Source: Myxococcota bacterium (GTDB lineage: Bacteria; Myxococcota_A; UBA9160; UBA4427). From it: 64,000 bases of DNA. The position numbers were made by a program, and so were the translations under genes. Shown piece after piece: positions 9,772 to 55,190 of the stretch. Location: assembly GCA_050618075.1 (NCBI GenBank), contig JBNLVL010000026.1:58558-122557 (forward strand), in the 5' to 3' direction. The stretch's first letter is position 1; each line of letters begins with the position of its first letter. The notes beneath the pieces were generated by a model, which saw only the letters and a list, made by a program, of their open reading frames with translations, did no database searches and was not told the DNA's origin.

Positions 9772-9874
9772 TCGGGACCGGGCAGCCGGCGGTCGGGCGG
9801 GATGGCGAGGCGGCTCGAACCCCGGTGGCTGGCCGGCCTGGCTCGAGGAGCGCAGCTGCAGCGGAGCGGCGCGC

Positions 9875-31956: not shown

Positions 31957-33318
31957 ATGAACCGATGGCCCGACATCCTGCGCTGCCCCGGCTGTCGGGG
32001 GGCCCTCCGGGACGGGGCCGGCGGCGCCCTGGCGTGCGACTCGTGCGGGGCCAGCCATCCGGTCCACGACGGCATCCCCTGGCTGTTCCGCAACGGCGCG
32101 AGCGCCCGCGCCCAGTGGTCGGCCAAGCTCCAGCACCACGTGGCCAGCGTCGAGCAGGAGATCCGGCAGCTCGCTTCGGCCTCCCAGGGCTCGAGCTGGC
32201 TGCCGGGCACGGCGCAAAGGCTCGAGCGCCTCCGCGCCGGCAAGCGGGCCCAGCTCTCCCGGGTCGTCGAGCTGCTCGCGCCCTTCGGTCTGGACGAGGC
32301 CGCGCCCGAGAGCGGGCTTCCCGAGGATCGCATTCCCAGCGTCCAGCACCTGGGCAGCTATCTCGACACCGCCTTCCGCGACTGGTGCTGGGGGGAGGCG
32401 GAGGTGCGCGACGCCGTGGCGTGGCTCGCCGCCCAGCTGGAGGCGGGGGAGGGCGACCGGGCCGGCCGGCACGCGGTCGTCCTGGGCGGGGGCGCCGGCC
32501 GGCTCACCTGCGAGCTCGCCGCGCTCGGACCCTGGGCGAGCGTCGTTCAGCTCGACGTCAATCCGCTGCTCAGTCGGATCGCCGCGCTCGCCTGCCGGGG
32601 CGAGTCGGTCGAGCTCACCGAGCTGCCCGCGATTCCCCTGGGCCTCGAGCACGTGGCGGTGGAGCAATCGCTGCGCGGGGTCGTCGAGGCGCCCGAGCCC
32701 GCGCCCCGGTTCTGTCTGGGGGACGTCTTCGCGCCGCCGTTCGCCGAGGCGTCCATCGACGTGATCGTGACGCCCTGGTTCATCGACGTCCTGCCCGAGG
32801 GCTTCCGCGCCCTCTCCCGGCGGATCAACCGGCTGCTGAAGCCGGGCGGCACGTGGATCAGCTTCGGCCCCCTGAGCTTCGAGTCGTTGCCCGAGGCGGC
32901 GCGCTATACGCCGGAAGAGGTGTTGGAGGCGCTGGTCGAGGCGGGCATGGGGGTCGAGAGCCACGAGATCCGCCGGGTTCCCTACCTGCATTCGCCCCAC
33001 GCCATGGCCCGCCGCCACGAAGAGATCCTCGGGTTCCGGGCGACCCGCCGGACCGAGGCCGCCGACCCCGGTCCCTTCCGTTACTACCCGGCCTGGATGA
33101 CCGATTCCACGCGTCCGATTCCCGCGCTGCCGATCTGGACCCAGCAGCAGCGCCAGAAGGTCTTCGACGTCCAGATCCTCGGGCTGATCGACGGCCGCCG
33201 CTCCATCGACGATGTGGTGTCACGCCTCGCCACGGAGTTCGAGCTGCCCCCCGACCGCTGCCGCGCCGTGGTCGACCGCTTCTTCTCGTCCATCATCGAA
33301 GAGTCCCGAGGCGGCTAG
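31957..33318 (+). CDS. Trm112-like zinc-ribbon + SAM-dependent methyltransferase + C-terminal PqqD-like (RRE-type) domain protein
   Basis: N-terminus RCPGCRGAL...CDSCGASHPVHDGIPWLF. Central VVLGGGAGRL and LKPGGTWISFGPL. C-terminus ILGLIDGRRSIDDVVSRLATEFELPPDRCRAVVDRFFSSII matches the PqqD pattern by eye. Confidence 0.8.
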   Translation: MNRWPDILRCPGCRGALRDGAGGALACDSCGASHPVHDGIPWLFRNGASARAQWSAKLQHHVASVEQEIRQLASASQGSSWLPGTAQRLERLRAGKRAQLSRVVELLAPFGLDEAAPESGLPEDRIPSVQHLGSYLDTAFRDWCWGEAEVRDAVAWLAAQLEAGEGDRAGRHAVVLGGGAGRLTCELAALGPWASVVQLDVNPLLSRIAALACRGESVELTELPAIPLGLEHVAVEQSLRGVVEAPEPAPRFCLGDVFAPPFAEASIDVIVTPWFIDVLPEGFRALSRRINRLLKPGGTWISFGPLSFESLPEAARYTPEEVLEALVEAGMGVESHEIRRVPYLHSPHAMARRHEEILGFRATRRTEAADPGPFRYYPAWMTDSTRPIPALPIWTQQQRQKVFDVQILGLIDGRRSIDDVVSRLATEFELPPDRCRAVVDRFFSSIIEESRGG

Positions 33319-33361
33319 ACCGTCCCGCGCCGCACGGTCCTCGACCTCCCTCCCCCCCGGA

Positions 33362-34048
33362 GCCGCTTCGCTTCTCCTGAGGTCCTCCGTTGCCCCGACC
33401 GGGGGATGGGTTGCGACTCCGTCTCCCTCCGCTCCTTCTCTGCCGAGGCTGGCGGCCGCGGGGAACACGACGCCTGCGCTCGTCCACACGCGGCCGCCAT
33501 CGGTCGTAGGAGCACTTCGAGTGCGAGCGCAGCGTACACGCCTCGGCGGTCGCTCCGCTGCCAACCCTTCCCCCGGTCTCGCACTGGATGGCCAACGGCC
33601 CTCGCTCGAGCCTCCGAGGACATGCGAACCGGAGTCGTTGGCTGCCCCGTCCCGGGTCGGGGGGGGCAGGGGGGTGCCGGGGGTAGGGGGGGGGCTTCGC
33701 GCTGGGGTTCCCGCCTGCGGAACTGGGCGGGGGCCCCCCCTGCACCCCCCGCCCCGGGCCGGGGCAGCCAACGACTCTGGTTCGAGCTGCCTCGAAGGAT
33801 CGCGCCTGCCGTTGGCTGCCCAGTGCGAGACCGGGGGAAGGGTTGACAGCGGAGCGACCGCCGACGCGAGAAGGGCGCTCTTGCCCTCGAAGCGCTTCTG
33901 CAACGCGTGGCGGCCAGCGTCGGCCTGAGCTGGAGCGTCGTGTTCCGTGCGGCCGCCAGCTGGCGCGCTGGCGTCAGGGGAGGGAGACGGAGTCGCAACC
34001 CTTCCGCCGGTCGGGGCAACGGAGGACCTCATGAGAAGCGGAGCGGAA
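33362..34048. repeat. About 685-bp imperfect palindrome: two inverted ~340-bp copies of a dispersed structured element, with G-run/C-run centre
   Basis: The left arm (33362-~33705) and the reverse complement of the right arm (~33706-34048) share blocks TGAGGTCCTCCGTTGCCCCGACCGG, GGGTTGCGACTCCGTCTCCCTCC, GGCGGCCGC.GGAACACGACGC, TCGGCGGTCGCTCCGCTG.CAACCCTTCCCCCGGTCTCGCACTGG and GAGTCGTTGGCTGCCCCG. Conserved blocks fall in different reading frames in the two copies, so the element is non-coding. Confidence 0.9.
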
Positions 34049-34068
34049 CCGGTTGGAGAAGAGGGGGG

Positions 34069-36447
34069 TCAGAGGCGGAAGCGGACCAGGGTGGCGGGGA
34101 GGAGGACGAGGTCGGTCAGCAGGCAGATCAGCATGGTGAGCGCCGTGAGCGCGCCGAACTCGCGGAGCGTGGCGAACTCCGAGAACACGATGACCCCGAA
34201 GCCCGCGACCAGCATCAGTGAAGTCATCGCGATGGGCCGACCCACGGCGCGCACCGTCGCCAGCGCGGCGGCCTCGGGCGCCGCCCCGGCCTGGCGCTCG
34301 CGCCGGTAGCGCACCATGAAGTGGGCGGTGTCGTCGACGGCGATGCCCAGGGCCACGCTTCCGATCAGGCTCGTGGGCAGGGAGAGCGGAGCGACGCCCA
34401 GGCCGAGCAGCCCGAAGAACACCACCACCGGCACGACGTTGGGCACCATGGCCACCAGCCCCAGGCGCGCCGAGGACAGCCCGAACGCGACCAGCCCGAA
34501 GATGGTGAGCGCGGCGATGCCGATGGTAAGGGGCTGGCCGCTGGCGATGCCGTCGGCGCTGCGCGCCAGCAGGATCGCGTTTCCCGTGAGCGCCGGCCGG
34601 CTCGCGTCCGGCCAGGGCCCCTGGGCGATCGCGGCGCGGATCTCCCGGGTGAGCTGGCGGATCGCCGCCGAGCCGACCTCCCCCGTGCGCACGATGACGT
34701 TGGCCTGGCCGTGGTTCACCGTGGCGAAGCGCTGCAGGTCCGTCTTGGGGATCATGAACAGCAGCTCGGAGACCCCGGAGCGGGTGTCGGGCACCCGCTC
34801 CGCGTCGGGGTCGTCCTCCTCGAAGGCCCGGTTGAGCACGCGGATCGTGTCCACGAACGACAGGGTCCGGCTGACCCCGTCGATCCGGTCGAGCCGCGCC
34901 TGGAGCGCCTCCAGCGCGCGCAGGCGCTCGGGCTCTCGCAGTCCGCCGCGCCCTCCCCCGTCGATGACCACGTACAGCGGGACCGCGCCGGCCAGCAGCC
35001 GGTTCACGGCCTCGAAGTCCGTGCGCACCGGATCCCGGGCGTCGAAGTTCGTGAGGTAGTCGGTGTCGACGACGATGTCGGGGATCGCCGCCGCCGCGAG
35101 CCCCGTGAGCAGCGCGGCCGCCGCCACGATCGCCCCGGAGTGCGCCACGACCCGGCGGGCCAGCCCGTCGAGGGCGGCCTCCAGGGCCCGGTCGAAGCGC
35201 CGTTCGGCCGCGGCCCGCACCGGCAGCAGCGCGAGGGCCGCCGGCACCGCGACCAGGGACAGGACGGTGATCGAAGCGACGCCCAGCGCCGCGAAGGCGC
35301 CCAGCTCGAGCACCGCGGGCACGTCGCTCACCAGCAGCGCCGCGAAGCCGGCCATGGTGGTGAGGCCGGCGATGCACACCGGCGCGCGCAGGTGGCGCAG
35401 CGCGGCCTCGGCGGCATCGGCGGGCGAGCCCGCGCCCGCCGCCGCGTCCTCCTCGTAGCGGGCGAAGACGTGGACGCCGTAGACGCTCCCCATGGCCACG
35501 AGGGTGGGCCCGAGCAGGCCCGTCAGGATCGTGAGCGCGTGCCCCAGGAAGGCCATCGCCGCGAAGGTCCACAGGTTCGCCACCAGGGCCACGCCCAGGG
35601 GCAGCACCACGCCGCGGCGGCGTCCGGTGGCCAGCCCGATCACGAGGGCCGCGACCGCGATGCCCAGGGGAATGAGGGCGCGCAGGTCCGAGACCATCCC
35701 GGCGTAGACCCGCGCCTTGATGTGGGGACGCCCGGAGACGTAGAGGGCCAGGTCCTCGGAGGCCTCGCCGGCGAGGATGCTCGCGATCCGGGAGTCGAGA
35801 CCGCTGGCGATGAACTCGTCGTCCCCCATGTCGCGAAAGCGCACGTTGATGGCCGCGGCCCGACCGTCCTCGGCCACCCAGGTGCGCCGGTAGATGGGGT
35901 CGGCGAGGGCGCGGTCGCGCAGCGCCCGCAGCGCGGCCGGGTCCTCGGGGATCTCCTCGATGAAGGGTCGCACCTCGACCCACTGCTCCTCGGCCACCCA
36001 GCGAAACGAGGTGACGTCGAGCAGGCTCCTCACCGAGCGCACGCCCTCGAGGTGGGCGATCCGATCCGAGACCCGTCCCAGGGTCGAGAGGCAGCGGACC
36101 GTGAAGACGTCCTCGCACTCGAGGGCGATCACGAAGACCTCGTCGTCGCCGAAGGTGCGCACGGCCTGGTCGTAGAAGGCGCGGGCGGGATCTCCGGAGG
36201 GAAGCAGGGGCTCCGTGGAGGCATCGAAGCGCAGGCGCAGGGCGCCCGATGCCGGGTCGAAGAGCGCCGCGGCCGCGAGGGCGACCGTGATCCCCACCGC
36301 GACGGCCACCGACCAGGGGTGCTCCACGACCTGACGCGGCCGGGCCAGGGCCCAGCCCACGGCCCCCGCCCACAGCAGCGCGCACCCGAGCGCGAACGCG
36401 AGCGCCAGCGGGTCGCCCGCCGCGCTCTCCCCCGTGGCTCCCGGCAT
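34069..36447 (-). CDS. MMPL / RND-superfamily exporter (HpnN-like lipid transporter)
   Basis: 792-aa ORF with two 6-TM bundles separated by soluble domains, an architecture typical of MMPL-type exporters. Confidence 0.85.
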   Translation of the reverse strand: MPGATGESAAGDPLALAFALGCALLWAGAVGWALARPRQVVEHPWSVAVAVGITVALAAAALFDPASGALRLRFDASTEPLLPSGDPARAFYDQAVRTFGDDEVFVIALECEDVFTVRCLSTLGRVSDRIAHLEGVRSVRSLLDVTSFRWVAEEQWVEVRPFIEEIPEDPAALRALRDRALADPIYRRTWVAEDGRAAAINVRFRDMGDDEFIASGLDSRIASILAGEASEDLALYVSGRPHIKARVYAGMVSDLRALIPLGIAVAALVIGLATGRRRGVVLPLGVALVANLWTFAAMAFLGHALTILTGLLGPTLVAMGSVYGVHVFARYEEDAAAGAGSPADAAEAALRHLRAPVCIAGLTTMAGFAALLVSDVPAVLELGAFAALGVASITVLSLVAVPAALALLPVRAAAERRFDRALEAALDGLARRVVAHSGAIVAAAALLTGLAAAAIPDIVVDTDYLTNFDARDPVRTDFEAVNRLLAGAVPLYVVIDGGGRGGLREPERLRALEALQARLDRIDGVSRTLSFVDTIRVLNRAFEEDDPDAERVPDTRSGVSELLFMIPKTDLQRFATVNHGQANVIVRTGEVGSAAIRQLTREIRAAIAQGPWPDASRPALTGNAILLARSADGIASGQPLTIGIAALTIFGLVAFGLSSARLGLVAMVPNVVPVVVFFGLLGLGVAPLSLPTSLIGSVALGIAVDDTAHFMVRYRRERQAGAAPEAAALATVRAVGRPIAMTSLMLVAGFGVIVFSEFATLREFGALTALTMLICLLTDLVLLPATLVRFRL

Positions 36448-36553
36448 GGGCTGGGGTGTAGTCGCGGCGCCTCGCGGGCGCCAGCCCGGCCCCGGGAACC
36501 GGCCCCGCTGCGCTTGCGGCGAAGAGGGAACTCGTCATAATCGGGCCGGGTTT

Positions 36554-36630
<77 letters not shown>

Positions 36631-36788
36631 CCCTCCCTCTCTACTCTGCGTCCGCCGTCGCGTCCCCGGGCGCGTCCACCCGCATCCGCGATCCCTTGGG
36701 GACCGCTGGGGCGCCGGGCCGGTCCGGCGCGGCATACTCGGGTCCCAGGCCGGCGCCATGCGGGCGCCGCCCGCGAGAGGGATCGCCC

Positions 36789-37319
36789 ATGCGAACGGCT
36801 CCCATCCTCCCCCTGATGACCCTGACGACGGCTCTGGCGTCCGGCCTCTGCGGCGCCTGCGGCCCGGCCTCCGATCCGGGACCGGAACCCATCGAGGTCC
36901 GCGTGGGAGGCATCGGGCTGGACCCCCGGACCGATTCACCGGTGGTGGTCCTGCGCGAGCGAGACGGCGCCCGCAGCCTGCCCATCTGGATCGGCACCGC
37001 GGAGGCCCGCTCCATCGCCATCGGGCTCGAGTCCCTCGAGCTGCCGCGCCCCAACACCCACGACCTGGCCAAGCGACTGCTCGCGAGCCTCGACGCACGC
37101 CTGGACCGCAGCGTGGTGACGAGCCTGCTGGACGGCACCTACTACGCCGTCATGGTGCTCGAGACCGGCGATCGGCACCTGGAGATCGACGCCCGCCCCA
37201 GCGACGCCATCGCCATCGCCCTGCGCATGGGCGCGCCCCTCTACGTGAGCGAAGGCCTGCTGGAGCCGCCCCCGGACCGCGGCGAGGCCCCCGAAGAAGG
37301 CGAAGAGCTCTCCCTCTAG
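36789..37319 (+). CDS. Bifunctional nuclease (DNase/RNase, BFN/DUF151) family protein with lipoprotein-like signal
   Basis: Trimmed from ORF 36570..37319, which overlaps the tRNA, to ATG 36789. Motifs PVVVLRE..G.R.LPIWIG..EA.SI and [13 protein letters not shown] are typical of the family. Confidence 0.85.
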
Positions 37320-37646
37320 ACGGCGCGGCAGGGCGTGTGCAACTCGGCCCCGATCGCATCGGAAACCATGGGCAATGGCGGGACCGTCGCAGGCTCGCGC
37401 CTGCCGACACACGAACATGTAGTCCGCAGGGACCTGCTCGCGGTCCGTTGACAAGGGTCTGGGCCGGTGTCAGGATCGCTTCGTTCCCGACGCTGTGGCC
37501 GGCATCACGGCGGTCCTTCAAGCGTCTCTCCCGGCCGCTGCGGCGCGACCCACCGAGAATCCGAGACCGGTTTCCGTCCATGTGACGCGGTGGGAAGCGC
37601 AGAGACGGAGACGGAGAGGGAGACGGGGACGAGAGAGGAACCGTCG

Positions 37647-37901
37647 ATGACGTTCGAAGAGTTGGCCTGGGAGTTCGTCGAGGTCTTCGACGAGCTGGAC
37701 GTGGCCGACATCAACACGATGCTCGCCAAGAACGTTCCGATGGAGAAGCTCGAGTTCTTCAACGCCTTCGCCGAGCAGTTCGCCAAGCAGGAAGGGCTGG
37801 TCGGGGACACCGGCCGCCGTCTTCCCAACCTCATGCTCATCGGTTACATCCTCCGCATTCTCGAGGAGCGTCTGCCCGTCAGCGAGCCGACGGGCGACTG
37901 A
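37647..37901 (+). CDS. Small acidic helical hypothetical protein (84 aa)
   Basis: ATG 37647 follows a purine-rich leader. The sequence MTFEELAWEFVEVFDELDV... has protein-like composition and locally lower GC. No family is recognised. Confidence 0.55.
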   Translation: MTFEELAWEFVEVFDELDVADINTMLAKNVPMEKLEFFNAFAEQFAKQEGLVGDTGRRLPNLMLIGYILRILEERLPVSEPTGD

Positions 37902-37927
37902 CGCCGCCTCCCTTCGTGGAGACCGCG

Positions 37928-38323
37928 ATGTCCAGCGAGTCGCCCATCGAGGTGCGGGCCGCCACCGCGCCCGAGCCGGTCGGACCCTATTCCCAGGCCA
38001 TCCAGTACGACGGGCTGATCTTCTGCTCGGGCCAGATCCCCCTCGACCCCGCCACGGGCGAGCTCGTGGGCGGCGAGATCGAGGACCAGGCGCGGAGGGT
38101 CATCGCCAACCTCTCGGCGGTGCTCGAAGCCGCGGGCTCGAGCCTCGACCGGGTGATCCGGACCTCGGTCTACCTGGTGGACCTGTCGCTGTTCCCGCGC
38201 GTCAACGCGGTCTACGCCGAGGCCTTCACGGGAGCCCCCGCGCCCGCCCGCTCGACGGTGCAGGTGGCCGCGCTGCCGCTGGGCGCGGAGATCGAGATCG
38301 ACCTCATCGCCCGGGCCGGCTGA
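37928..38323 (+). CDS. RidA/YjgF-family reactive intermediate deaminase
   Basis: APEPVGPYSQAI..DGLIFCSGQIPLDP.TGELV and ARSTVQVAALPLGAEIEI motifs. The start could instead be GTG 37916. Confidence 0.9.
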   Translation: MSSESPIEVRAATAPEPVGPYSQAIQYDGLIFCSGQIPLDPATGELVGGEIEDQARRVIANLSAVLEAAGSSLDRVIRTSVYLVDLSLFPRVNAVYAEAFTGAPAPARSTVQVAALPLGAEIEIDLIARAG

Positions 38324-39014
38324 CGCCGCTCCCGTACTCCCGCACCAGCTTCGGCAGGTTGACCCCGTTCACCAGCGTGTGGGCGACCACGGGCGCCGTC
38401 AGGTTGCCGGTCCACTGGTAGAGCCCCCCGAAGAGCAGCCCCGCCCCGATGGCAAAGACCGTCCAGGGCGCGAACTCGCGCCGGGGGACGAAGTGCAGCA
38501 CCCCGAAGAGCAGGCTGGCCCACAGCCAGCCCACGACGGGCTGCAGGGCGCCCCGGAAGAGGAGTTCCTCGGCCAGCCCGCTGGCGGTCGCCAGCAGCAG
38601 CGCATCGGGCACCGAGAGCGGCCCCAGCGCCCCGGCCAGCGAGCGGGCCAGGTCCTCGCCCCAGCGCGTCCGCCGGGTGGCGAGGCTCGACAGGCCCAGC
38701 AGCACGCCACCCACCGCCACCCCGAGACCGAGGTCGCGAGCGAAGGTGGAGAGCGCCGCGCTGGCCGGCCCGGCGAAGGTCCAGATCGCCTGGCCCTGCC
38801 AGCCCACCCGCCACAGCACCGCCACGGCCGCCATGGCCCCGTAGAAGACCAGTCCGAAGCGGACGAAGACCTCGGGCGGGGGCGGTCCGGCCTCGCTCCC
38901 CCCGGCGTCGTCGCGCAGCGGTCCGCCTCCCCCGCCCGGCTCGCCTCGCCCCTCGTCCACTCTCGCGTCCCCTCGATGCGCGAACGGATCGCGCTCATTT
39001 GACCCTTTGGACAC
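38304..39014 (-). CDS. CPBP-family (CAAX/Abi) intramembrane metalloprotease
   Basis: Motifs LAEELLFRGALQ, FGVLHF and APVVAHTLVN. GTG start is uncertain (atypical N-terminal 40 aa). The 3' end overlaps the RidA gene by 20 nt. Confidence 0.8.
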   Translation of the reverse strand: MSKGSNERDPFAHRGDARVDEGRGEPGGGGGPLRDDAGGSEAGPPPPEVFVRFGLVFYGAMAAVAVLWRVGWQGQAIWTFAGPASAALSTFARDLGLGVAVGGVLLGLSSLATRRTRWGEDLARSLAGALGPLSVPDALLLATASGLAEELLFRGALQPVVGWLWASLLFGVLHFVPRREFAPWTVFAIGAGLLFGGLYQWTGNLTAPVVAHTLVNGVNLPKLVREYGSGVSRPGR

Positions 39015-39159
39015 GCACGGTTAGCTTCCAACAGGGGCCTGGTTCCCGTGGGGCCGCAGGTGGCCCGCTCGGGCCGCCCGAGCCCTCTCCGGCGCGATCG
39101 GGGCCCATACGGCCCGATCGGGGCCGGGCAGTTTAACGTCCAGACCCGGAAGAGCATCC

Positions 39160-39636
39160 ATGTCCGATCGAGTGCCCATGACGCCCGGTGGCTACCAGAA
39201 GCTCAAGGACGACCTGCACCAGCTGAAGACCGTGGAGCGATACGAGAACGTCAAGGAGATCGAGGAGGCGCGAGCCCACGGCGACATCTCCGAGAACGCG
39301 GAGTTCCACGCGGCGAAGGAGAAGCAGGCCCACATCGAGGGCCGGATCCGCATGCTCGAGGACAAGATCGCCCGGGCCCAGATCATCGACCCGAGCCAGC
39401 AGGGCTCGGACAAGGTCCGCTTCGGGACCACCGTGGTGCTGAGCGACACCGAGAGCGGCGAGGAGGTCACGTACCGCATCGTGGGCGAGGACGAGTCGGA
39501 CGTGGCCGAAGGCCTCATCTCCATCACCTCGCCGGTGGCCCGTGCGCTGCTCGGCAAGGAGGTGGACGACGAGGTGAAGGTCCGGGTGCCCAAGGGCACC
39601 CGGGAGTTCGAAGTCCTCGAGATCCGGGCGGAGTAG
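39160..39636 (+). CDS. greA: Transcription elongation factor GreA
   Basis: 158-aa ORF. GDISENAEFHAAKEKQ and ISITSPVARALLGK motifs. Confidence 0.95.
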   Translation: MSDRVPMTPGGYQKLKDDLHQLKTVERYENVKEIEEARAHGDISENAEFHAAKEKQAHIEGRIRMLEDKIARAQIIDPSQQGSDKVRFGTTVVLSDTESGEEVTYRIVGEDESDVAEGLISITSPVARALLGKEVDDEVKVRVPKGTREFEVLEIRAE

Positions 39637-39737
39637 GCCGCCCCGCGGCCCCACCGCGCCGGCGTCCGGGCGGCCCCTCGGCCCGGAGCGACGAATTGAT
39701 TTTCGGGCGGGAGCCCCTAGACTCCCGCCCGCGCCGT

Positions 39738-39813
39738 TCCCCGGTAGCTCAGCTGGCAGAGCAAGCGGCTGTTAACCGCTGGGTCGTAGGTTCGAGTCCT
39801 ACCCGGGGAGCCA
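39738..39813 (+). tRNA. tRNA-Asn (anticodon GUU)
   Basis: Acceptor TCCCCGG/CCGGGGA, D-arm GCTC-AGCTGGCA-GAGC, anticodon arm AGCGG-CTGTTAA-CCGCT, T-arm GTAGG-TTCGAGT-CCTAC, encoded CCA. Confidence 0.95.
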
Positions 39814-39948
39814 CGCTTCCCCCGCCGCGCGAGGCGCGCGAAACGCGCCGCCGCCGGCTTCTTGCCCGATGCGTCCTCGATCTTCGCGCCCGTCGCGGCG
39901 CGTCCATCGGCCCTGCGCGCGCCGACCTCGCGTGGGTTCGCGAGGCGC

Positions 39949-42900
39949 TCAGGAGCGCGCCGCGATCCTCGGCGGCGTCCCGTCCCCGGTGTCGCTCACG
40001 GGAGTGAGGGTCCGCCGGCGGGCCCTCGGGTTCAGGTCCTCCAGGACGAGATACGCCGACGGCACCAGGAAGAGCGAGATCACCGTCGCGAACGCCACCC
40101 CGAAGGCGAGGCTCGTGGCCATGGGAATGAGGAACGCCGCCGAGACGCTGCGCTCGAAGAGCAGCGGTGTCAGCCCCGCGAAGGTCGTCAGCGACGTGAG
40201 GACGATGGGCCGGAAGCGCGCCACGCCGGCGTTGTGGACCGCGACCTCCAGGGGGTCGCCGGCCTCGCGCCGGGTGTTGACGTAGTGCACCAGGACCAGG
40301 CTCGCGTTGACCACCACGCCCGTCAGGGCCACCACGCCGAAGACCGACATCATGCTGAGGTTCATCCCCATCAGCAGGTGGCCTGCGATGGCGCCCACCA
40401 GCCCGAACGGGATCACGGCCATGATGATGAGCGGCTGGAAGTAGGAGCGCAGCGGAATCGCCAGCAGGGCGTAGATCACGACCAGGGCGAAGCCGAAGTT
40501 CCGGATGAGCGCGCCCATGGTCTTCTGCTGCTCGCGCTGCTCGCCCTCGAGGTCGTAGGAGAGGCCGGGGAAGTCGGCCAGCAGCCGGGGAATGAACTCC
40601 GCGCGCAGCGCCCGCAGCACCTCGTTGGAGGTGGTGACGGTCTCGTCGAGCTTCGCCGTCACGTTGATCACCCGCTGGCGGTCGGCGCGCTTGATGTTGG
40701 CGTAGCCGCGGGTGCGCTCGGCGCGGGCGACGGCGTAGAACGGGACCTCGCCCCCGTCGGCCGTGCGGATGCGCAGGTTGTCGAGGTCGGCCAGGCTCCG
40801 GCGCTGGCTCTCGGGATAGCGGACCATGACCCGGACGTCGTCGCGCCCGCGCTGGATGCGCTGGGCCTCGGCGCCGTAGAACGCCTGACGCACCTGGCGC
40901 GACAGGTCCTCGAGGGTCAGCCCCAGGCTCTCCGCGGCGGGCAGGATGTCCAGGCGGATCTCCTCCTTGCCCTCGCGGAACGAGTCGTTCACGTCGAAGA
41001 CCCCGGGATAGGTCCGGAGCTTCTCCTTCATCCGCTCCGCCGCCACCAGCAGCATGTCGACGTCGGAGGACTGGAGGCGCACGTCGATGGGGTCGCCCAC
41101 GGAGAAGAGCGCGGAGCTGAAGGTCAGCTCCTCGGCGCCGGGCACCGGCGGCGAGAGCGCGCGCCAGCGGTCCTCGACGCTCTTGGCGCTGATCGGGCGC
41201 GCGTCGCCGGAGCGCAGCTCGAGGCTCACCTCGCCCAGGTGGCTGCCGCCGCCTCCCGCGCGCGAGAGGCTCGGTGGGCCGTTGCTGACCGAGGGCTGCT
41301 GTCCCACCGAGGCGAGGACGTGCAGGATCTGCTCCTCCTCGTGGGCCGCGTCCAGCTCCCGCTTCAGGCGCCAGGCCGCCTGCTCGATCTGCTCGATCGC
41401 CGCCGCCGTCACCTCCTCGGGAGTCCCGTCGGGCATGGTGAGGCGCGCGGTCACGTAGTCCGCCTCGACCGCCGGGAAGAAGCTGAACTTGAGACGCCCG
41501 GAGCCCACCACCGAGATCGTCACCACGAAGATCGCGATCCCGAGCGCCAGCGTGGCGTAGCGCCATTCGAGCGCGCGCGTGAGCACCGGCCGGTAGACGT
41601 CGCTGGCCAGCCGCTCGAGGCTGCCGGACATCCGGCTCTGGAAGCGCTGCCAACGGGCCTTGACGCCGTCGCCGGTGGGCTCGGCCTCGAGGTGGCGGGG
41701 CCCGATGCGCATGTGGCCCAGGTGGGCCGGCAGGACGAGCTGCGATTCGACCAGCGAGAAGAACAGGCACAGGATCACGACCATCCCGATGGCGCCGAAG
41801 ATCTGTCCCATGGGACCGGGCGAGACGATCAGCGGGAAGAACGCGGCGACGGTGGTGAGCACGCCGAAGACCACCGGGATCGCCACCTCCTGGGCTCCGC
41901 GGATGGCCGATTGCAGCGGGTCCTCGCCCTGCTCCTGGTGGCGGTGGACGTTCTCGCCCACCACGATGGCGTCGTCGACGAGCAGGCCCAGCACCAGGAT
42001 GAACGCGAACAGCGAGATGACGTCGATGGAGATGCCGATCATCGGGAACAGGGCCAGCGCGCCCAGGAACGCGATGGGGACGCCGATGGCCACCCAGAAG
42101 GCCAGCCGCAGCCGCAGGAAGAGCGCCAGCAGCAGGAAGACCAGGATGAACCCGCCGCGACCGTTGCGGATGAGGATGTCCAGGCGGTCCCGCAGGACCT
42201 GGGAGCCGTCCCGCCACACGGTCACCGCGAGGCTCTCGGGCAGGCGCGCGGTCGCCTCCCCGGTGTACTCCTTCACGCGCTCGACCAGGTCGAGGACCTT
42301 CTGCTCGCCGACGCGAAACACCTTGATCAGGACCGCACGGCGGCCGTCGAAGCGGGCGTAGCTCGGGTCCTCCTCGAAGCCGTCGCGCACGCTCGCGATC
42401 TCGCCGAGCAGGAGCCGCGTGCCGTCCTCCCGGGTCAGCACCACCAGCTGCTCGAACTCCTCTCCCCGATAGGCCTGGCCCACCGTGCGCAGCCGCACCT
42501 CGCCGGACTCCGTGCGGATCGAGCCGCCGGGACGGTCGAGGGACCCCCGGCGGACCGCCGCGACCACCTGGTCGAAGGTGAGCCCGTGGCGGCGCAGGGT
42601 CTCCTCGGAGACCTCGATGGAGATCTCGTAGGGGCGCACGCTGGCCAGCTCGACCTGGGTCACGTCGGGCAGGGAGGAGATCTCGTCGCGCACGCGCTCG
42701 CCGATCTCCTTCAGGGCGCGCTCCGAGGCGTCGCCCGACAGCGCGATCTGCATGGCGTTGCGCCGGACGGTGAGGTGGCTCACGACGGGCTTCTCGGTGT
42801 CCTCGGGAAACGTGTCGATCGCGTCCACCGCGTTCTTGATCTCGGACAGCGCCCGGTCGACCGGGTAGCCCTCGAGCAGCTCGGCCGAGACCCCGCAGTT

Positions 42901-43164
42901 GCCCTCGGCGGCGGTGGAGCGGATCTTCTCGATCCCCTCGATGCCCTGGATCTCCTCCTCGACCCGCACGCAGACCGACTCCTCGACCTCCTCGGGCGTG
43001 GCGCCCAGGAACGGCACGCCGATCTGGATCACCTCGGTCTGGATGTCGGGGAAGGACTTCTGGTTGATCGCGGGCAGCGCCGCGATGCCGCCGAAGACGA
43101 TCAGGATCATCAGCAGGTTCGCGGCCACGTGGTTGCGGGCGAACCACGCGATGGGCCCGCTCAC
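39949..43164 (-). CDS. Efflux RND transporter permease subunit (AcrB family)
   Basis: Trimmed to GTG 43164 (VSGPIAWFARNHVAANLLM...), which overlaps the MFP stop as GTGA. It has 12-TM RND topology and conserved LVDDAIVV block. Confidence 0.9.
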   Translation of the reverse strand: MSGPIAWFARNHVAANLLMILIVFGGIAALPAINQKSFPDIQTEVIQIGVPFLGATPEEVEESVCVRVEEEIQGIEGIEKIRSTAAEGNCGVSAELLEGYPVDRALSEIKNAVDAIDTFPEDTEKPVVSHLTVRRNAMQIALSGDASERALKEIGERVRDEISSLPDVTQVELASVRPYEISIEVSEETLRRHGLTFDQVVAAVRRGSLDRPGGSIRTESGEVRLRTVGQAYRGEEFEQLVVLTREDGTRLLLGEIASVRDGFEEDPSYARFDGRRAVLIKVFRVGEQKVLDLVERVKEYTGEATARLPESLAVTVWRDGSQVLRDRLDILIRNGRGGFILVFLLLALFLRLRLAFWVAIGVPIAFLGALALFPMIGISIDVISLFAFILVLGLLVDDAIVVGENVHRHQEQGEDPLQSAIRGAQEVAIPVVFGVLTTVAAFFPLIVSPGPMGQIFGAIGMVVILCLFFSLVESQLVLPAHLGHMRIGPRHLEAEPTGDGVKARWQRFQSRMSGSLERLASDVYRPVLTRALEWRYATLALGIAIFVVTISVVGSGRLKFSFFPAVEADYVTARLTMPDGTPEEVTAAAIEQIEQAAWRLKRELDAAHEEEQILHVLASVGQQPSVSNGPPSLSRAGGGGSHLGEVSLELRSGDARPISAKSVEDRWRALSPPVPGAEELTFSSALFSVGDPIDVRLQSSDVDMLLVAAERMKEKLRTYPGVFDVNDSFREGKEEIRLDILPAAESLGLTLEDLSRQVRQAFYGAEAQRIQRGRDDVRVMVRYPESQRRSLADLDNLRIRTADGGEVPFYAVARAERTRGYANIKRADRQRVINVTAKLDETVTTSNEVLRALRAEFIPRLLADFPGLSYDLEGEQREQQKTMGALIRNFGFALVVIYALLAIPLRSYFQPLIIMAVIPFGLVGAIAGHLLMGMNLSMMSVFGVVALTGVVVNASLVLVHYVNTRREAGDPLEVAVHNAGVARFRPIVLTSLTTFAGLTPLLFERSVSAAFLIPMATSLAFGVAFATVISLFLVPSAYLVLEDLNPRARRRTLTPVSDTGDGTPPRIAARS

Positions 43165-44432
43165 GGGTCTTCTCCCGGGGTCGCGTCGAGGCGCGCGACC
43201 GGCGCCTGGGCGCGGTGCACCCGCACCGCCATGCCGTCCACGACGCCGCGCAGGGGCGAGACGACCACCTCCTCTCCGGGCAGGAGGCCGCCTCCGAGCA
43301 CCACGCGGTCGCGCTCCACCCGCAGCACGTCCACGTCCCGGAAGGTCAGCCGGCCGTCGCCGTCGACCACCCAGACCACGTGGTCCTCGCCCTGCTCCGC
43401 GCGGCGCAGGGCGGTGCGCGGGAGCACGATGGCGCGATCCACCGACCGGCCTTCGATCTCCGCCTCGACGAACAGCCCCACCGCCAGCGGAGCCATCGAC
43501 TCCTCGCTGCGACGACCGTAGGGGTCGGGCACGCGCGCGATCACGTTCACCATCCGGCTGCGCGGGTCGATCTCGCCCTCGGTCCGCACGATCCTGCCCT
43601 GCCACGCGTGGGACCGGCCGGCGAACTCGGCGCGCAGGGTCACCTCGGGCGTGTTCCCTGGGGCGTCGGCCGGAGGCGGAGCCCCGGCGGCCTCGGGATC
43701 GGGCGTCGGGGTGCGCGTGGGACGCAGGGAGAGGTCGAGGAACCGCAGCTCGCGGTCCGGGAGCGGCAGCCTCACTTCGGCGAAGTCCACCGCGTACAGG
43801 CGGGCGATGGTCTGGCCGCGGGCCACGAACTGCCCGACGTCGACGCTCTCGCTGCGAACGCGGCCTTCGTACGGTGCTTGCAGCTCGGTCCGCTCGAGGT
43901 CCCGCTGCGCGCGCGTGAGGCGGGCCTGCGCCTCGCGCAGGGTGGCCTGGGCCACCGCGTGGGCATTCTCGGCGTCGTCGATGCGCGATTCGGCGGCGAC
44001 CGAGCGGTCGGCCAGGCGCCGCTGGCGCGCCAGCTCCTTCTCCGCGCGAGCGAACTCGCTGCGCGCGCGGGCCAGCATCGCCCGCGCCTCCTCGAGCGCG
44101 GCCTCGTAATCGGCGCGCTCGATGCGCAGCAGCGGCTCCCCCTCCTCGAAGAAGCCACCGGCCACGAGGTCGGGGGAGACCCAGACGACCTCACCGGAGA
44201 CCTGGGGCACCAGGTCTCCCTCGGAGCGCGGGACCACGACTCCGTTGCCGTAGACGTGGAAGCGCACCGGTCCGAGCGAGGCCTCTACCACCTCGACGAG
44301 CGGCGCGGGCTGGGCCCGCTTCTCGGGCTCGAGCTCGGGACGCGTCGCCACCACCACCGCGGCGACGAGGAACCCGCCGAGGAGGATCGCGATGGGAGCC
44401 CAGACCCTGGGCGACCCGATCTTCGGGTTCAT
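43161..44432 (-). CDS. Efflux RND transporter periplasmic adaptor (MFP) subunit
   Basis: 423-aa ORF with N-terminal TM, coiled-coil hairpin (ARAEKELARQRRL...AQARLTRAQRDLERTELQAPYEGRV) and beta-barrel domain. Confidence 0.9.
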   Translation of the reverse strand: MNPKIGSPRVWAPIAILLGGFLVAAVVVATRPELEPEKRAQPAPLVEVVEASLGPVRFHVYGNGVVVPRSEGDLVPQVSGEVVWVSPDLVAGGFFEEGEPLLRIERADYEAALEEARAMLARARSEFARAEKELARQRRLADRSVAAESRIDDAENAHAVAQATLREAQARLTRAQRDLERTELQAPYEGRVRSESVDVGQFVARGQTIARLYAVDFAEVRLPLPDRELRFLDLSLRPTRTPTPDPEAAGAPPPADAPGNTPEVTLRAEFAGRSHAWQGRIVRTEGEIDPRSRMVNVIARVPDPYGRRSEESMAPLAVGLFVEAEIEGRSVDRAIVLPRTALRRAEQGEDHVVWVVDGDGRLTFRDVDVLRVERDRVVLGGGLLPGEEVVVSPLRGVVDGMAVRVHRAQAPVARLDATPGEDP

Positions 44433-45169
44433 CGAGTCACTCCCTGGGGCGAGCGGAGCCCGGCCGCTGCGTAGGCGATCATGCGCACCAGGATCTCCTC
44501 TTCGGAGAGCGCGACGCCCGCGCCCTCGTCCCCCTCTCCGAGAGCCGGGGCGTCGTCGAGGTGCCCGGCCATCACGTGGACCATCAGCCCCACGGTGAAC
44601 TGGAAGGACAGCGCGAGGTCGTCCCTGGACTGATCCGGGAGAGCCCGCCCCAGGGCGCTCAAGAACCGGTCCACCAGGTCGTGGAAGAGCTCGCGCTTCA
44701 GCACGGCCACCAGCTCCGGCGGGTCCGCGAACAGCCGAGCCGCCACCTGGCGGACGGCGCGGCGGGCCTCGTCGCTGGTGGCCCGGTACTCGAAGCTCGG
44801 GCGCAGGAAGGCCTCGAGCACCTCTTCCACGGTGACGGCGCGGCCCTCCTGGTCGGCGCGGCCCAGCACCTGCTCGAGGGAGCGCAGCCGATGGCGATTG
44901 ACGGGCTCCAGGCGCCGCTGGATCACCGCACGCAGCAGGCTCTCCTTGCTGCCGAAGTGGTAGTTGGCCGCGGACACGCTCGTCCCGGCGCTCCGGGTGA
45001 TGGCTCGCATCGAGGCGCCCTCGAATCCGCGCTCGCCGAACTGCCGCTCGGCCGCGTCGAGCAGCCGCTCCTTGGTGCGGCGGCGGTCACCGGCCGAATC
45101 GCTCGGAGGGCTCGGGTCACTGGAAACGGCGGGGTCCGCCAGACGATCGGAGACGGGGTGGCTGCTCAT
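44429..45169 (-). CDS. TetR/AcrR-family transcriptional regulator
   Basis: Trimmed to ATG 45169, preceded by GAGGGAGG. HTH RLLDAAERQFGERGFEGASMRAITRSAGTSVSAANYHFGSKESLL. ATGA overlap with the MFP start. Confidence 0.9.
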   Translation of the reverse strand: MSSHPVSDRLADPAVSSDPSPPSDSAGDRRRTKERLLDAAERQFGERGFEGASMRAITRSAGTSVSAANYHFGSKESLLRAVIQRRLEPVNRHRLRSLEQVLGRADQEGRAVTVEEVLEAFLRPSFEYRATSDEARRAVRQVAARLFADPPELVAVLKRELFHDLVDRFLSALGRALPDQSRDDLALSFQFTVGLMVHVMAGHLDDAPALGEGDEGAGVALSEEEILVRMIAYAAAGLRSPQGVTR

Positions 45170-45345
45170 GGGCCTCCCTCGAACGCGCGTTCGGAACATA
45201 CGTTCGACGGTCCGGGTTTGCAATGGTCGAGTCTGCCAACCGGGGCCGGATCCGTCTCGCGATCCGCAGGTGGGAGTCCAAGTGGCCGTTTTTCCGTTAC
45301 GATCCGGCCAATCCGGGCCTCGCTGACGCCCGGGCCAGCAAGGGG

Positions 45346-45948
45346 ATGGTGATGGCGGTGGTGAAGACGGCGACGAAACCCGCGAACCGGTGGGTCGCCC
45401 CGATGGCGGCGGCGATCGCCGCGCTCGTGACCTTGGCAGCCGCGGCGCCGGCCGCAGCAGAGACCGGCTGGGTACGCGACGAGGTCCGGCTCAACCTCCG
45501 CACCGGACCCGGCACCCAGTACCGCATCGTGGGCGTCCTCAAGACGGGGGACGACGTGACCATCCTCGATCGCGGGGACAGCTGGACCCAGGTCCGCCTC
45601 GACGACGGCAAGTCCGGCTGGATTCCCCTCGGCTTCCTGCAGCCGACGCCGCCGGCCGCGGTGCGCATCGACCGGGTCCAGGCCCAGCTCGCCGAGCTCC
45701 AGGCGAAGCTCGACGAGACGGGCGCCGAGGCCGCCCGCCTGCGCGAGGAGAATACACAGATCGGCGGTCGCGACGGCGAGCAGCGCGAGGAGATCGAGCG
45801 GCTCACCCTCGAGAACTACGAGCTGCGCGCCGGTGCGCGCTGGCCCGAGTGGATCACCGGCGCCTCGATCCTCGTGGTCGGCATGATGGTGGGCGCGCTC
45901 CTCCACCGCAACGCGACCCGCCGCCCGAGTACGCGCATCCGCATCTAG
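45346..45948 (+). CDS. SH3b domain membrane protein (YgiM/TIGR04211-like)
   Basis: Signal peptide, SH3b block VRLNLRTGPGTQYRIVGVLKTGDDVTILD..DSWTQVRLDDGKSGWI, coiled coil, and C-terminal TM. Confidence 0.85.
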   Translation: MVMAVVKTATKPANRWVAPMAAAIAALVTLAAAAPAAAETGWVRDEVRLNLRTGPGTQYRIVGVLKTGDDVTILDRGDSWTQVRLDDGKSGWIPLGFLQPTPPAAVRIDRVQAQLAELQAKLDETGAEAARLREENTQIGGRDGEQREEIERLTLENYELRAGARWPEWITGASILVVGMMVGALLHRNATRRPSTRIRI

Positions 45949-45966
45949 GCCCCACCTCCCGGCGGC

Positions 45967-46291
45967 GGCCGCTTCGCTCCAATCGTGCGGGCCGCTTCGC
46001 ATGCACAGCGCCGCTTCGCTTCACCTGAGCGCCTCCGTTCCCCCGGTCTCGCACTGGGCAGCCAACGGCCGCGACGGTCCTGCGAGGCAGCGCGACCGGG
46101 AGTCGTTGGCAGCCCGGCTTCGCGTCGGGGGAGCAGGGGGTCCCGCGCGCAGATTCCGCAGGCGCCGAGGCCAGCGCGAGGCAGCCCGGTTACCCCGGGA
46201 AGCAACCCCGTCCGTTCGCCGAGGACTGTTTGAGCACGGGGCCCCCTGCTCCCCCGACCCGTCCCGAGCAGCGCATGAGGAGCGAAGCGGC
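45967..46291. repeat. Short (about 325 bp) MITE-like copy of the dispersed repeat family with inverted termini
   Basis: Three direct GCCGCTTCGC motifs (45969, 45991, 46010) on the left and AGCGAAGCGGC (46281-46291) on the right. Internal 14-bp inverted repeat GGGGGAGCAGGGGG / CCCCCTGCTCCCCC. The 30-mer CCCCCGGTCTCGCACTGGGCAGCCAACGGC (46040-46069) is identical to the reverse complement of 33808-33837. Confidence 0.85.
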
Positions 46292-46297
46292 CTGTCT

Positions 46298-46344
46298 GGG
46301 GGGGGGGGGGGGGAGGGAGAGCGGGGGGGGGGAGGGGAGGGGGG
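46298..46344. repeat. Homopolymeric G-run cluster (G16, G3, G10, G4, G6), G-quadruplex-prone
   Basis: G16 at 46298-46313, G10 at 46323-46332, G6 at 46339-46344. The cluster directly abuts the trkA stop codon (46345-46347, minus strand). Confidence 0.9.
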
Positions 46345-47709
46345 TCAGGAGCCGAGGAAGTCGGTCAGCTTGGGCGCGACATCGGTGGTGGTGATCAGCA
46401 GGACGCGGTCCCCTGCCTCCACCGTGTCCGAGCCCCGCGGCACCAGCAGCTGCTGACCGCGCCGGATGGCCACCACCAGCACACCCCGAGGCAGCTCGAC
46501 CTCCGAGAGCGGCCCGGCCGACAGCCGGCCGCCGCCGGTGGCCTCCACCTCCACGATCTCCACCTGGTCCTCGAGCAGGGCCGCGCCGCTGCGCACGGTG
46601 CGCCCGCGGATGTGCTGGAGCGTCATCCCGATGGTGATCGAGCGGGGACTGATGATGGCGTCGATGCCGATGTCGCCCACCATCGCGACCAGGGCGGGGT
46701 TGTCGACGAGGGCGATGGCCCGCTGGGCCCCCAGTCGCCGGGCCAGCAGTCCGGCGACCAGGTTCGACTCGTGGTCCCCGGTCGCGGCCACGAAGGTCGA
46801 GACCGTCTCGATCTCCTCGTCGTCGAGCAGCGTCTGGTCCGTCGCGATCCCGTGGATGACGGTGACGTCGTCGAGCTCCTCGGCGGCGCGCTCCGCCCGC
46901 TTCCGATCCGCCTCGAGCAGGACCACCCGCTCGTCGCTGGAGCGAAGCCTTCGGGCCAGCCCCAGGCCAATGGGTCCGGCGCCGGCGATCATCACCCGGC
47001 GGGTGCGCCGATGCTCGACTCCGACCAGGGAGAGCACGTCCGAGAGCTCCTCGCGGGCGATGGCGAAGTAGACCAGATCGTCGACCTCGATGGCCTCGCT
47101 GCCGTGGGGAATCAGCCAGTCGGCGCCGCGGTGGATCGCAACCGCCAGCGTGGGGGTCGCCGCGAACAGGAGGTTCAGGTCGGAGACGTGGAGCCCCGCG
47201 AAATCGGAGCTCGGGCCGATCCGGAAGCCGGCCACCAGCAGCTCGCCGTCGAAGAAGTCCACCACGTCCAGGGCGCCGGAGACCTCGAGCAGGCTCGCAA
47301 TCCGGTCGACCGACGCGAGGTCGGGGTTGACGGTCACGTGCTCGGTGGGATGGTCGGCGCCGATGAGGGCGAAGCCTTCCTCGTGGCCGGGATCGCGCAC
47401 CCGGACGACGATCCTCGGGACGCGGAAGATCTCGGCCGCCAGGAAGCCCACCACCATGTTGGACTCGTCGGAGTCGGTCGAGGCGACCACCAGACCGGCG
47501 TTGGCGGCGCCGGCGCTGCGCAGGACGGGGGTCGTCGCCCCGTTGCCCACGACGACCTGGACGTCCAGGGTGTCGGCGAGGTTCGCGACCTTCTCCGCGT
47601 CGGTCTCGATGACGGTGACGTCGTAGTTGTCCCGCGAGAGCCGGTCCGCCAGGGTCTGGCCGACCAGGCCTCCGCCGACGATGACGATGTTCCGGAGCGT
47701 CGTGGCCAA
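46345..47709 (-). CDS. trkA: Trk potassium uptake system NAD-binding protein TrkA (two RCK units)
   Basis: Trimmed to TTG 47709 (ATTLRNIVIVGGGLVGQ...). Second Rossmann motif VMIAGAGPIGLGLA. Tandem TrkA-N/TrkA-C organisation. Confidence 0.85.
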   Translation of the reverse strand: MATTLRNIVIVGGGLVGQTLADRLSRDNYDVTVIETDAEKVANLADTLDVQVVVGNGATTPVLRSAGAANAGLVVASTDSDESNMVVGFLAAEIFRVPRIVVRVRDPGHEEGFALIGADHPTEHVTVNPDLASVDRIASLLEVSGALDVVDFFDGELLVAGFRIGPSSDFAGLHVSDLNLLFAATPTLAVAIHRGADWLIPHGSEAIEVDDLVYFAIAREELSDVLSLVGVEHRRTRRVMIAGAGPIGLGLARRLRSSDERVVLLEADRKRAERAAEELDDVTVIHGIATDQTLLDDEEIETVSTFVAATGDHESNLVAGLLARRLGAQRAIALVDNPALVAMVGDIGIDAIISPRSITIGMTLQHIRGRTVRSGAALLEDQVEIVEVEATGGGRLSAGPLSEVELPRGVLVVAIRRGQQLLVPRGSDTVEAGDRVLLITTTDVAPKLTDFLGS

Positions 47710-53840: not shown

Positions 53841-55190
53841 TCACTCCTCGTCGGAGATGTCTTCGAGCTCCCGGCGCGCCGTCTCGGGAACCATCAACGC
53901 GACCCCGCCCGCGATCAGGGTCAGGAACACGATGACGCTGGCGGCCGGGGCGTAGCTCGCGCCTTCGGCGGTGAGCAGGCTGACCGCCGCCAGGCCGCTG
54001 GCCGCGCCCAGGGTCTCGAAGAGGCTGAGGGACCCCGACGCGGTGCCCCGGGACGACGTGGGGAACAGCTCGGTCGAGAGCGCGCGTACGACGGTGTTGC
54101 CGCCGGTGGTGACGAAGACCATGGGAATCCACACGGCGGGGATCCAGAAGGTCGGGACGTTGTAGAAGGCGCAGGCGAAGACCGGGAACAGTCCGAGGAT
54201 GAGGAACCCCACCACGCGGCGCCCCAGGCGGTCGGCGAAGCGCCCCACGGCGGTGTTGCCGATGATCCCGACCGCGCCCCCGAGGATCACCATGGTGCTG
54301 TACTGCCCCTTGGTGAACCCGTGGTCCGTCAGCACGAAGTCGCCCACCAGCTGGTGCGCCATGCCGTGGCCCGCGGCCGCGAGGGAGCCGATCGAGGCGA
54401 GCGCCAGGGAGCGGCCGGGGTAGCGCTTCGCGAGGGTCGCGAAGGGCCTCCACCAGCCCAGGAGCCACGAGCCCGTGGCCCGCACGTCCCGACTGCGGGT
54501 GAACCGGTGGGTCTCCGGAACCCGGCGGTGGAACATCGGGAGCAGGAAGAGCGGTATGGCGCCGAACACGTAGAGAGCGCGCCAGCCGTAGGGCAGGTGG
54601 TCGGACAGGGGAAAGACGAGGGCGCCGAGGCCGAAGCCCACGGCGCCGAGCGCCCCGAGGATGCCCACCGCCCAGCCGCGGTGCCGGGCCGGGAACTCCT
54701 CGGCCACGATCACGAACGCCACGGCGGATCCGGCGATGAGAAAGGTGCGCGCCAGCATCTGGATGGCCACGAACTGCGCGGCGGACTGGCTGAAGGCCGT
54801 CAGCAGCGTCGCCAGGCTGGTCCCGGCGACGGACACGAGGAACAGCCGGCGTCGCCCGATGCGGTCCGCGAAGGGGACCAGGAGGACCGCCGGCAGCGCT
54901 CCCAGTCGGACCAGGGCGGTGAGCCCACCCAGGTCGGACTGGGGGATGTCGAAGGAGGCCCGGATGTCCCGGGCGGCGGCGGTCAACATCGAGATGTCGT
55001 AGTGCTCGAAGAGCAGGGCCAGGGCGATGACACCCAGCAGGCCGAGCTGGGCGGGCGTGACCTCGGGCGGCACCCGACCCAGGAAGGGCGGAATCCACCA
55101 GGGCTGACGCGCGGGAAGCGGCTCCGAACGCGGGTCGGCCCGGCCGGAAGCGGCGTCTTTCGAAGACGAATCTCGAGGCGGCTCGCTCAC
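53841..55190 (-). CDS. MFS transporter
   Basis: 449-aa ORF with 12 TM-like segments and MFS signature-like DRIGRRR / DRLGRR loops. Confidence 0.9.
   Translation of the reverse strand: MSEPPRDSSSKDAASGRADPRSEPLPARQPWWIPPFLGRVPPEVTPAQLGLLGVIALALLFEHYDISMLTAAARDIRASFDIPQSDLGGLTALVRLGALPAVLLVPFADRIGRRRLFLVSVAGTSLATLLTAFSQSAAQFVAIQMLARTFLIAGSAVAFVIVAEEFPARHRGWAVGILGALGAVGFGLGALVFPLSDHLPYGWRALYVFGAIPLFLLPMFHRRVPETHRFTRSRDVRATGSWLLGWWRPFATLAKRYPGRSLALASIGSLAAAGHGMAHQLVGDFVLTDHGFTKGQYSTMVILGGAVGIIGNTAVGRFADRLGRRVVGFLILGLFPVFACAFYNVPTFWIPAVWIPMVFVTTGGNTVVRALSTELFPTSSRGTASGSLSLFETLGAASGLAAVSLLTAEGASYAPAASVIVFLTLIAGGVALMVPETARRELEDISDEE

Follow-up and report, generated by a model that had tools for sequence, protein, structure and literature searches.

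The feature at 46 kb of the window, by which we mean the whole 64-kb stretch of DNA analysed here, is probably a copy of an old, lineage-restricted, non-autonomous and non-coding palindromic (foldback) repeat family of uncultured Myxococcota. The members of this family are repeated with inverted termini, differ in size as a deletion series, do not encode protein and lie between convergent genes, and a relative has an empty site at the junction that the 46-kb copy fills. The family itself is new and belongs to a familiar, MITE- or REP-like kind rather than to a new kind of system; some of its traits are atypical, namely the absence of a TSD, a foldback member of 686 bp, modules built on G tracts and a strictly convergent placement.

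Termini, copies and internal order

The region examined comprises the window, with a G+C content of 72%, and a further 5.8 kb walked via Logan contigs of window genes, 69.8 kb in all. Alignment of the element ends yields a 26-nt terminal signature, GCCGCTYCGCTNCNNNTGMGNNNCTC, which, scanned with up to 2 mismatches allowed, has 6 matches in 64 kb against 0.06 expected (5 sites exact, 1 with a single mismatch); the six sites form three inverted pairs that bound elements A, B and C (Table 1), and within these pairs 20-23 of the 26 positions agree. The original prediction had proposed a dispersed modular non-coding family with inverted termini, and this is what is found, with three TIR-bounded elements in the window and a degenerate fourth, D, just outside it; the short terminal module that it described is present in all TIR-bounded elements, at a length of 26 nt rather than 10-11.

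The internal order common to the elements runs from the terminus through a core hairpin with a conserved CCCCCGGTCTCGCACTGG box to a G-tract hairpin. A profile of the part common to five arms recovers five homologous arms at four loci (E 1e-18 to 5e-33) and, weakly, their inverted partners, with no further match in the window or in the relatives' loci; the core 18-mer is present 3 times, and the four known copies all lie within 70 kb of one contig. Runs of G or C of at least 8 nt occur in the window only in the centre of A and in the right flank of B. Exact repeats of at least 20 nt in the 69.8 kb all come from the A-D family, except for one tandem repeat at 6.5 kb. This array (6525-6658) consists of 8-nt units, also with a 17-nt period (GGCGGAGT / GGACGAGT / GGTCGAGT), and lies in a divergent gap just upstream of the epimerase gene at 6677-7618.

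Element B was said to begin with three direct motifs and to end on an inverted one, and these are in place: GCCGCTTCGC, with 8 matches in the window against 0.82 expected, stands at 45968, 45991 and 46010 (+) and, inverted, at 46282-46291, and the outermost solo terminus pairs with the right end of B in the predicted fold. The 14-bp internal inverted repeat reported for B is exact (GGGGGAGCAGGGGG at 46127-46140, its complement CCCCCTGCTCCCCC at 46242-46255) and forms part of a longer, 31-nt inverted repeat with 87% complementarity. Two further identities had been given slightly too short: the 30-mer held in common with the 33.8-kb copy is exact over 32 nt (46038-46069 equals the reverse complement of 33808-33839), and the 21-mer held in common with the 9.7-kb locus is exact over 22 nt (9750-9771 equals 46237-46258) and lies in the 3' arm of the G-rich hairpin of B. 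The approximately 170 bp reported as missing from B are indeed absent, CCTCCGTT abutting CCCCCGG in B where the A-like copy has 180 nt. On both strands alike, the predicted RNA fold of B is much more stable than that of shuffled sequence (z -4.5 on the + strand, -4.3 on the - strand). The G tract to its right (46298-46344) is complementary to a C-rich tract at 45952-45962 and is missing from the relative's empty site; its exact length is that of the MAG assembly alone, as no retrieved independent contig spans 46068-46344.

Table 1. Coordinates of the repeat elements and their parts (window positions, except for element D)
Feature	Position	Strand	Length	Description	Flanking genes
Element A	33362-34047		686 bp	TIR pair	methyltransferase-PqqD / MMPL transporter, convergent
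A TIRs	33362-33387; 34022-34047	+; -	26 nt	right terminus with one mismatch	
A outer flank, C-rich	33343-33361	+		CCTCCCTCCCCCCCGGA; pairs with G-rich flank 34048-34068, ACCGGTTGGAGAAGAGGGGGG	
Element B	46010-46291		282 bp	TIR pair; palindrome reaches 45967-46292 with solo termini	SH3-domain protein / TrkA, convergent
B whole palindrome	45967-46292			outer 14-bp perfect inverted ends GGCCGCTTCGCTCC / GGAGCGAAGCGGCC	
B full TIR pair	46010-46035; 46266-46291	+; -	26 nt		
B extra solo left termini	45968-46000	+		GCCGCTTCGC at 45968 and 45991, outside the full left TIR	
B core module	46038-46118			CCCCCGGTCTCGCACTGG, then hairpin GGGCAGCCAACGG...TCGTTGGCAGCCC; contains the exact 32-mer common to A	
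B G-rich hairpin	46121-46261			arms 46121-46151 and 46231-46261, 31 nt, 87% complementary	
G16...G10...GGGGAGGGGGG tract	46298-46344	+		between B and the trkA stop codon	
Element C	9725-9870		146 bp	TIR pair	PQQ-dehydrogenase / molybdopterin oxidoreductase, convergent
C TIRs	9725-9750; 9845-9870	+; -	26 nt	second terminus GCCGCTCCGCTGCAGCTGCGCTCCTC, inverted	
Element D	about 9795-9960 of Logan contig L108, 0.7 kb past the window end			degenerate fourth copy	hypothetical protein / rhomboid protease, convergent

What had been taken for two long copies near 33 kb is one 686-bp foldback, element A, with two arms. These flank a 60-nt centre of G and C tracts (33675-33734), match each other block by block at 81-94% complementarity, and each contain about 180 nt missing from B; as RNA, A has a predicted fold of -618 kcal/mol (z -33). 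The locus at 9.7 kb, described as a fragment, proves to be a complete 146-bp element whose second terminus is inverted, and it fills the convergent gap between the PQQ-dehydrogenase and molybdopterin-oxidoreductase genes. Element D lies in the next convergent gap beyond the window, and its fold is no better than that of shuffled sequence (z +1.5).

Aligned to A in reverse complement, B keeps the same order throughout: one terminus, a 180-nt deletion, 172 nt at 70-85% identity (from the core hairpin across the G tract to the centre of A) and the other terminus; the reverse complement of C equals B minus B positions 131-251. Judged from these alignments, A, B and C make up a nested series of internal deletions, from A to B to C. 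The copies are old, identity between arms being no more than 56-82% across the 118 columns that they share; exact 18- to 32-mers are kept in these otherwise diverged arms, which suggests inter-copy recombination or else constraint that acts on certain modules. Of the 13 bp of the core stem, 12-13 pairs are retained in A and B, 10 of 13 in C and 8 of 13 in D, and the alignment of the A-D copies contains no compensatory double changes in it; given this absence and the decay of the stem in C and D, a selected RNA role is unproven. The left arm of A has two transitions that preserve wobble pairs, a number short of significance, and a strand-specific RNA was set aside on this ground and on the equal folding of B on both strands.

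Convergent junctions, relatives and assembly support

The copies had been placed in gaps between convergent or divergent genes; all four are in convergent gaps and none is in a divergent one. Roughly 12 of the approximately 46 junctions in the 69.8 kb are convergent, and the elements occupy 4 of these, a placement that random hits on junctions would give with a probability of about 0.005. The eight element-free convergent junctions are mostly short: six are at most 35 bp or overlap, one is 138 bp and lies beside a tRNA, and one is an unannotated 984 bp. The last of these (37319-38304, between a bifunctional-nuclease gene and an Rce1-like gene) has no family element inside and, like 12053-12853, is a stretch with no confident gene or Pfam match. 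At 5 of the 8 gene ends that flank the elements a C-rich tract directly follows the stop codon, with a G-rich partner across the element. The 14 kb from 33000 to 47000 contain no canonical intrinsic terminators (hairpin plus U run), which makes hairpins that lack a U run plausible as 3'-end structures in this genome. By eye there is no T run 3' of any element, which rules out an intrinsic terminator of the SPRITE type, where a U/T run comes after a GC-rich hairpin.

The junction that B occupies can be compared with its counterparts in relatives. Only 15 bp separate the stop codons of trkA and SH3 in the nearest relative, which has a TrkA of 87% identity and was seen in two JGI samples, compared with 396 bp in the window, so that the test for insertion polymorphism suggested along with the original prediction, run at B against this relative, gives an empty site; the empty site (L020) holds no alignable target sequence. 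Three contigs of an outgroup (TrkA about 70% identical) keep the convergent order and have unrelated fillers of 120-127 bp at the trkA/SH3 junction. Since relatives have either an empty gap or unrelated fillers, the filler of the B junction is lineage-specific, and the presence of the same material at three other, unlinked junctions implies spread by some form of transposition or recombination. At the A site the relative's methyltransferase gene has another downstream neighbour, and the junction is not orthologous.

Two observations concern the neighbourhood of this junction. A different, AT-rich perfect palindrome (GGACGTTGATTAAGAAGTTGCAGAATCGCC...GGCGATTTGCTTAACTTCTTAATCAACGTCC, L104 5400-5470) fills the orthologous trkA/SH3 gap in one of the more distant relatives, and the junction seems to gather unrelated hairpin elements across lineages. 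GreA and the SH3 gene are close neighbours in relatives (L102, L104); in the window they are separated by a tRNA gene (39738-39810) together with an RND efflux operon (AcrB, MFP, TetR; 39949-45169), which suggests an insertion beside the tRNA.

Wherever Logan contigs from SRR30568139 overlap the window, the identity is 100%; they enter C, B and both sides of A by 30-100 nt, so the sequence has independent support outside the element interiors. Five of the 11 Logan contig ends within the window fall inside A, B or C, which make up about 2% of the sequence, and an in-window exact repeat of at least 31 nt explains one of these five. Such assembly breaks inside the elements hint at further copies in the genome, with coverage loss in strong hairpins as the alternative. 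The other contig ends are at 36604 (in the tRNA gene 36554-36627), 41952 (in the AcrB gene), 47739 (just upstream of trkA) and 54874-54903 (in an MFS gene, where two Logan contigs overlap by exactly 30 nt), and point to more repeats or to strain variants in the sample.

Coding capacity, mobility genes and database searches

The elements are non-coding: GC3 across the frames of A and B is flat at 0.67-0.79, compared with 0.84-0.96 in real genes. Searches with translated A against 5.8 billion and 1.84 billion proteins found no homologue, the one match being a spurious Cys-rich repeat protein at E = 5e-4. The earlier statement that the window contains no transposase is borne out by Pfam for the genes checked, which include no transposase, integrase or HUH enzyme, nor a RAYT or Y1 transposase; by the same analysis the window genes are ordinary housekeeping, transport and redox genes. 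The window also contains a candidate selenoprotein at 5-1540 (+), in which an ATG at 5 leads through an in-frame TGA (125-127) into an AhpC-TSA_2 / short-chain dehydrogenase ORF; in alignment with the paralogue at 2478-3020 this TGA takes the place of the first Cys in the paralogue's RHFGCxxCRE motif, and a perfect 7-bp hairpin, GTCGCGC-AGTT-GCGCGAC (146-163), about 20 nt 3' of the TGA is a possible SECIS.

No direct-repeat TSD of at least 2 nt flanks A, B or C. The flanks are instead mutually complementary, GAGCGC/GCGCTC at C and C-rich/G-rich at A and B, so that either the outer C/G module belongs to the element or the element lands in pre-existing hairpins. We know of no IS with these ends and of no parent IS.

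Public collections returned little. The core 18-mer has 18 singleton matches in GTDB species genomes, none extending past the seed and hence attributed to chance, and the core 20-mer has 0 matches in JGI metagenomes. The TIR pattern yields 81 singletons in metagenomes, none with an inverted partner or extended similarity; IMG/VR viral contigs give 2 single matches to the TIR pattern and 0 to two other modules, and BLAST against PLSDB plasmids gives no match. Short-read MAGs often lose such repeats, which weakens the negatives of the pattern scans, and the genome set scanned is one without the source MAG, so that copies in the source genome itself fall outside these counts. The negatives in public collections thus indicate that the family is not widespread and are silent on its copy number in the source genome. 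An Rfam search had also been suggested at the outset; at the gathering score the window has only two tRNAs, and a relaxed scan of A and B gives only far-sub-threshold matches to miRNA hairpins, so that neither element has a match at either setting.

A literature search on myxobacterial MITEs or REPINs, and on the motifs themselves, returned nothing relevant. Matches to GCCGCTTCGC in papers on attC presumably reflect the attC(aadA7) stem, and we take them as coincidence. An integron attC site was rejected: AGCCAAC and GTTGGCT/GTTGGCA of the core hairpin each miss RYYYAAC / GTTRRRY at one position, and the flanks are convergent housekeeping genes rather than co-oriented cassettes near intI.

Known systems, rival explanations and significance

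The description of the elements as MITE-like holds for their inverted termini, their non-coding nature and their size variants by deletion; it does not hold for the TSD, which is a defining feature of MITEs (PMC3184786) and is absent here. With bacterial MITEs such as Correia/NEMIS, ERIC/IRU, RUP and Nezha (PMC3184786) the family has in common that it is non-coding, intergenic and about 100-700 bp long, with TIRs, long stem-loops and size variants that arise by internal deletion, and its enzyme would likewise be supplied in trans. Unlike them, it lacks a TSD and an identified parent IS, its flanks are complementary rather than direct repeats, its longest member is an almost complete 686-bp foldback, and the four copies seen are all convergent.

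The resemblance to REP, BIME and REPIN sequences (PMC3116915, PMC3337134; bioRxiv 10.64898/2026.03.23.713779) lies in GC-rich extragenic palindromes, inverted doublets, clusters with solo units, the absence of a TSD and enrichment between convergent genes; the solo and back-to-back termini in B and D resemble REP singlets or BIME clusters more than MITEs. REPs are reported to terminate transcription partially in a Rho-dependent way, to stabilise mRNA and to accompany convergent gene pairs (bioRxiv 10.64898/2026.03.23.713779; PMC3184786), and a 3' UTR function as terminator or stabiliser is, for the present family, inferred from this likeness. Unlike REPs, which are about 25-40 nt long and typically present in hundreds of copies, the units here measure 140-340 nt, four copies are seen, no RAYT is in the window, and there is no sequence similarity to known REPs. 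The short palindrome of about 20-40 nt that defines a REP or REPIN (PMC3337134, PMC3116915) has no counterpart here, the unit of doublet A being about 340 nt and the core hairpin about 65 nt. The SPRITE and BOX elements of Streptococcus pneumoniae (PMC3184786) differ in another way, SPRITE mimicking an intrinsic terminator with a U run that this family lacks. Their host, base composition and sequence are also unrelated. As a lead only, we mention the RMX repeats of Myxococcus xanthus, reportedly described by Fujitani, Komano and Inouye (J Bacteriol, 1991) as an intergenic repeat family of a myxobacterium, located in the spacers next to gene ends.

These likenesses frame the competing explanations. 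If the family were of the REPIN type, which we regard as unlikely, the mobile unit would be the single arm (terminus, core hairpin and G tract), the inverted two-arm element A would be a replicating doublet, and a RAYT or an IS200/IS605-type HUH transposase, encoded once elsewhere, would move it by a single-stranded DNA route, which would explain the missing TSDs. The doublet structure of A is consistent with this, its arms being about as diverged from each other (82% identity) as the right arm is from B (78%), as are the separate hairpin in each arm, the solo termini and terminus clusters that recall REP singlets or BIMEs, and the extragenic placement between convergent genes known for REPs (PMC3184786); yet the arms, at 140-340 nt, are about ten times the length of a REP, the window has no RAYT or Y1 transposase, and no conserved tetranucleotide cleavage motif can be defined from four loci. 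Quite improbable is a reading in which the elements are host-selected structured modules of 3' UTRs, acting as bidirectional Rho-assisted terminators or RNA stabilisers, with mobility incidental: on both transcripts a C-rich leader would precede the long hairpin and a G-rich tail would follow it, and selection at convergent junctions would keep this arrangement. The strictly convergent placement, the symmetry of the C-rich and G-rich tracts about the elements, the equal folding of both strands, the region devoid of canonical terminators and the exact 18- to 32-mers that persist in diverged copies argue for such modules. Against them stand the 15-bp gap of the nearest relative at the B junction, the many convergent junctions here of at most 35 bp with no element, the fold of D at shuffled level, the uncompensated decay of the core stem in C and D, the lack of an Rfam match, and sizes that range from 146 to 686 bp.

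We consider it doubtful, too, that an undescribed type of element targets convergent junctions or terminators, leaves no TSD and is used by the host as a bidirectional terminator. A long foldback unit with G-tract modules capable of forming G-quadruplexes would then insert into, or build, the hairpin between convergent genes, moving by a single-strand, hairpin-dependent mechanism or by template switching, and the elements found in every substantial convergent gap examined would result from targeting and not only from purifying selection. Least credible by far, at a very low probability, is the view that the feature arose in assembly or that the MAG merely has a local segmental duplication. All copies do lie within 70 kb, and none of the retrieved independent contigs covers the G16 tract or the interior of A or of B; nevertheless, contigs of SRR30568139 identical to the window reach into A, B and C, the arms of A are imperfect, unlike chimeric-read palindromes, and the copies are diverged and stand in four different gene contexts, and we reject both on these grounds.

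In the reading that we prefer, a non-autonomous family of palindromic repeats, the elements most likely originated as MITE-like or REPIN-like mobile DNA that was formerly spread by an enzyme encoded elsewhere, the candidates being a DDE transposase that recognised the 26-bp ends or a single-strand HUH enzyme that recognised the hairpins. The copies would now be old and decaying, with deletion and inter-copy recombination eroding the family, and recombination among them may have produced the mosaic of exact shared modules and solo ends. We propose that copies survive only at convergent junctions because those sites hold no promoter. Once inserted, an element would join the 3' UTRs of both convergent genes and would probably be co-transcribed with them, and its very stable GC-rich hairpins could plausibly reduce read-through and shield the 3' ends, in the manner of E. 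coli REP elements. A REP-like role in 3' UTRs is plausible on this comparison, and a region without hairpin-plus-U terminators leaves room for it.

We see no sign of a new biological principle in these results. Confirmation across the genome would make this a first interspersed palindromic repeat family described for this uncultured Myxococcota lineage; it would also be a family that breaks short-read assemblies at gene ends, a marker for strain typing and insertion polymorphism, and a candidate for the origin of 3' UTR structure where, as in this high-GC genome, canonical terminators are lacking. With no TSD and a strictly convergent placement, the family would make a reasonable test case for how such repeats spread.
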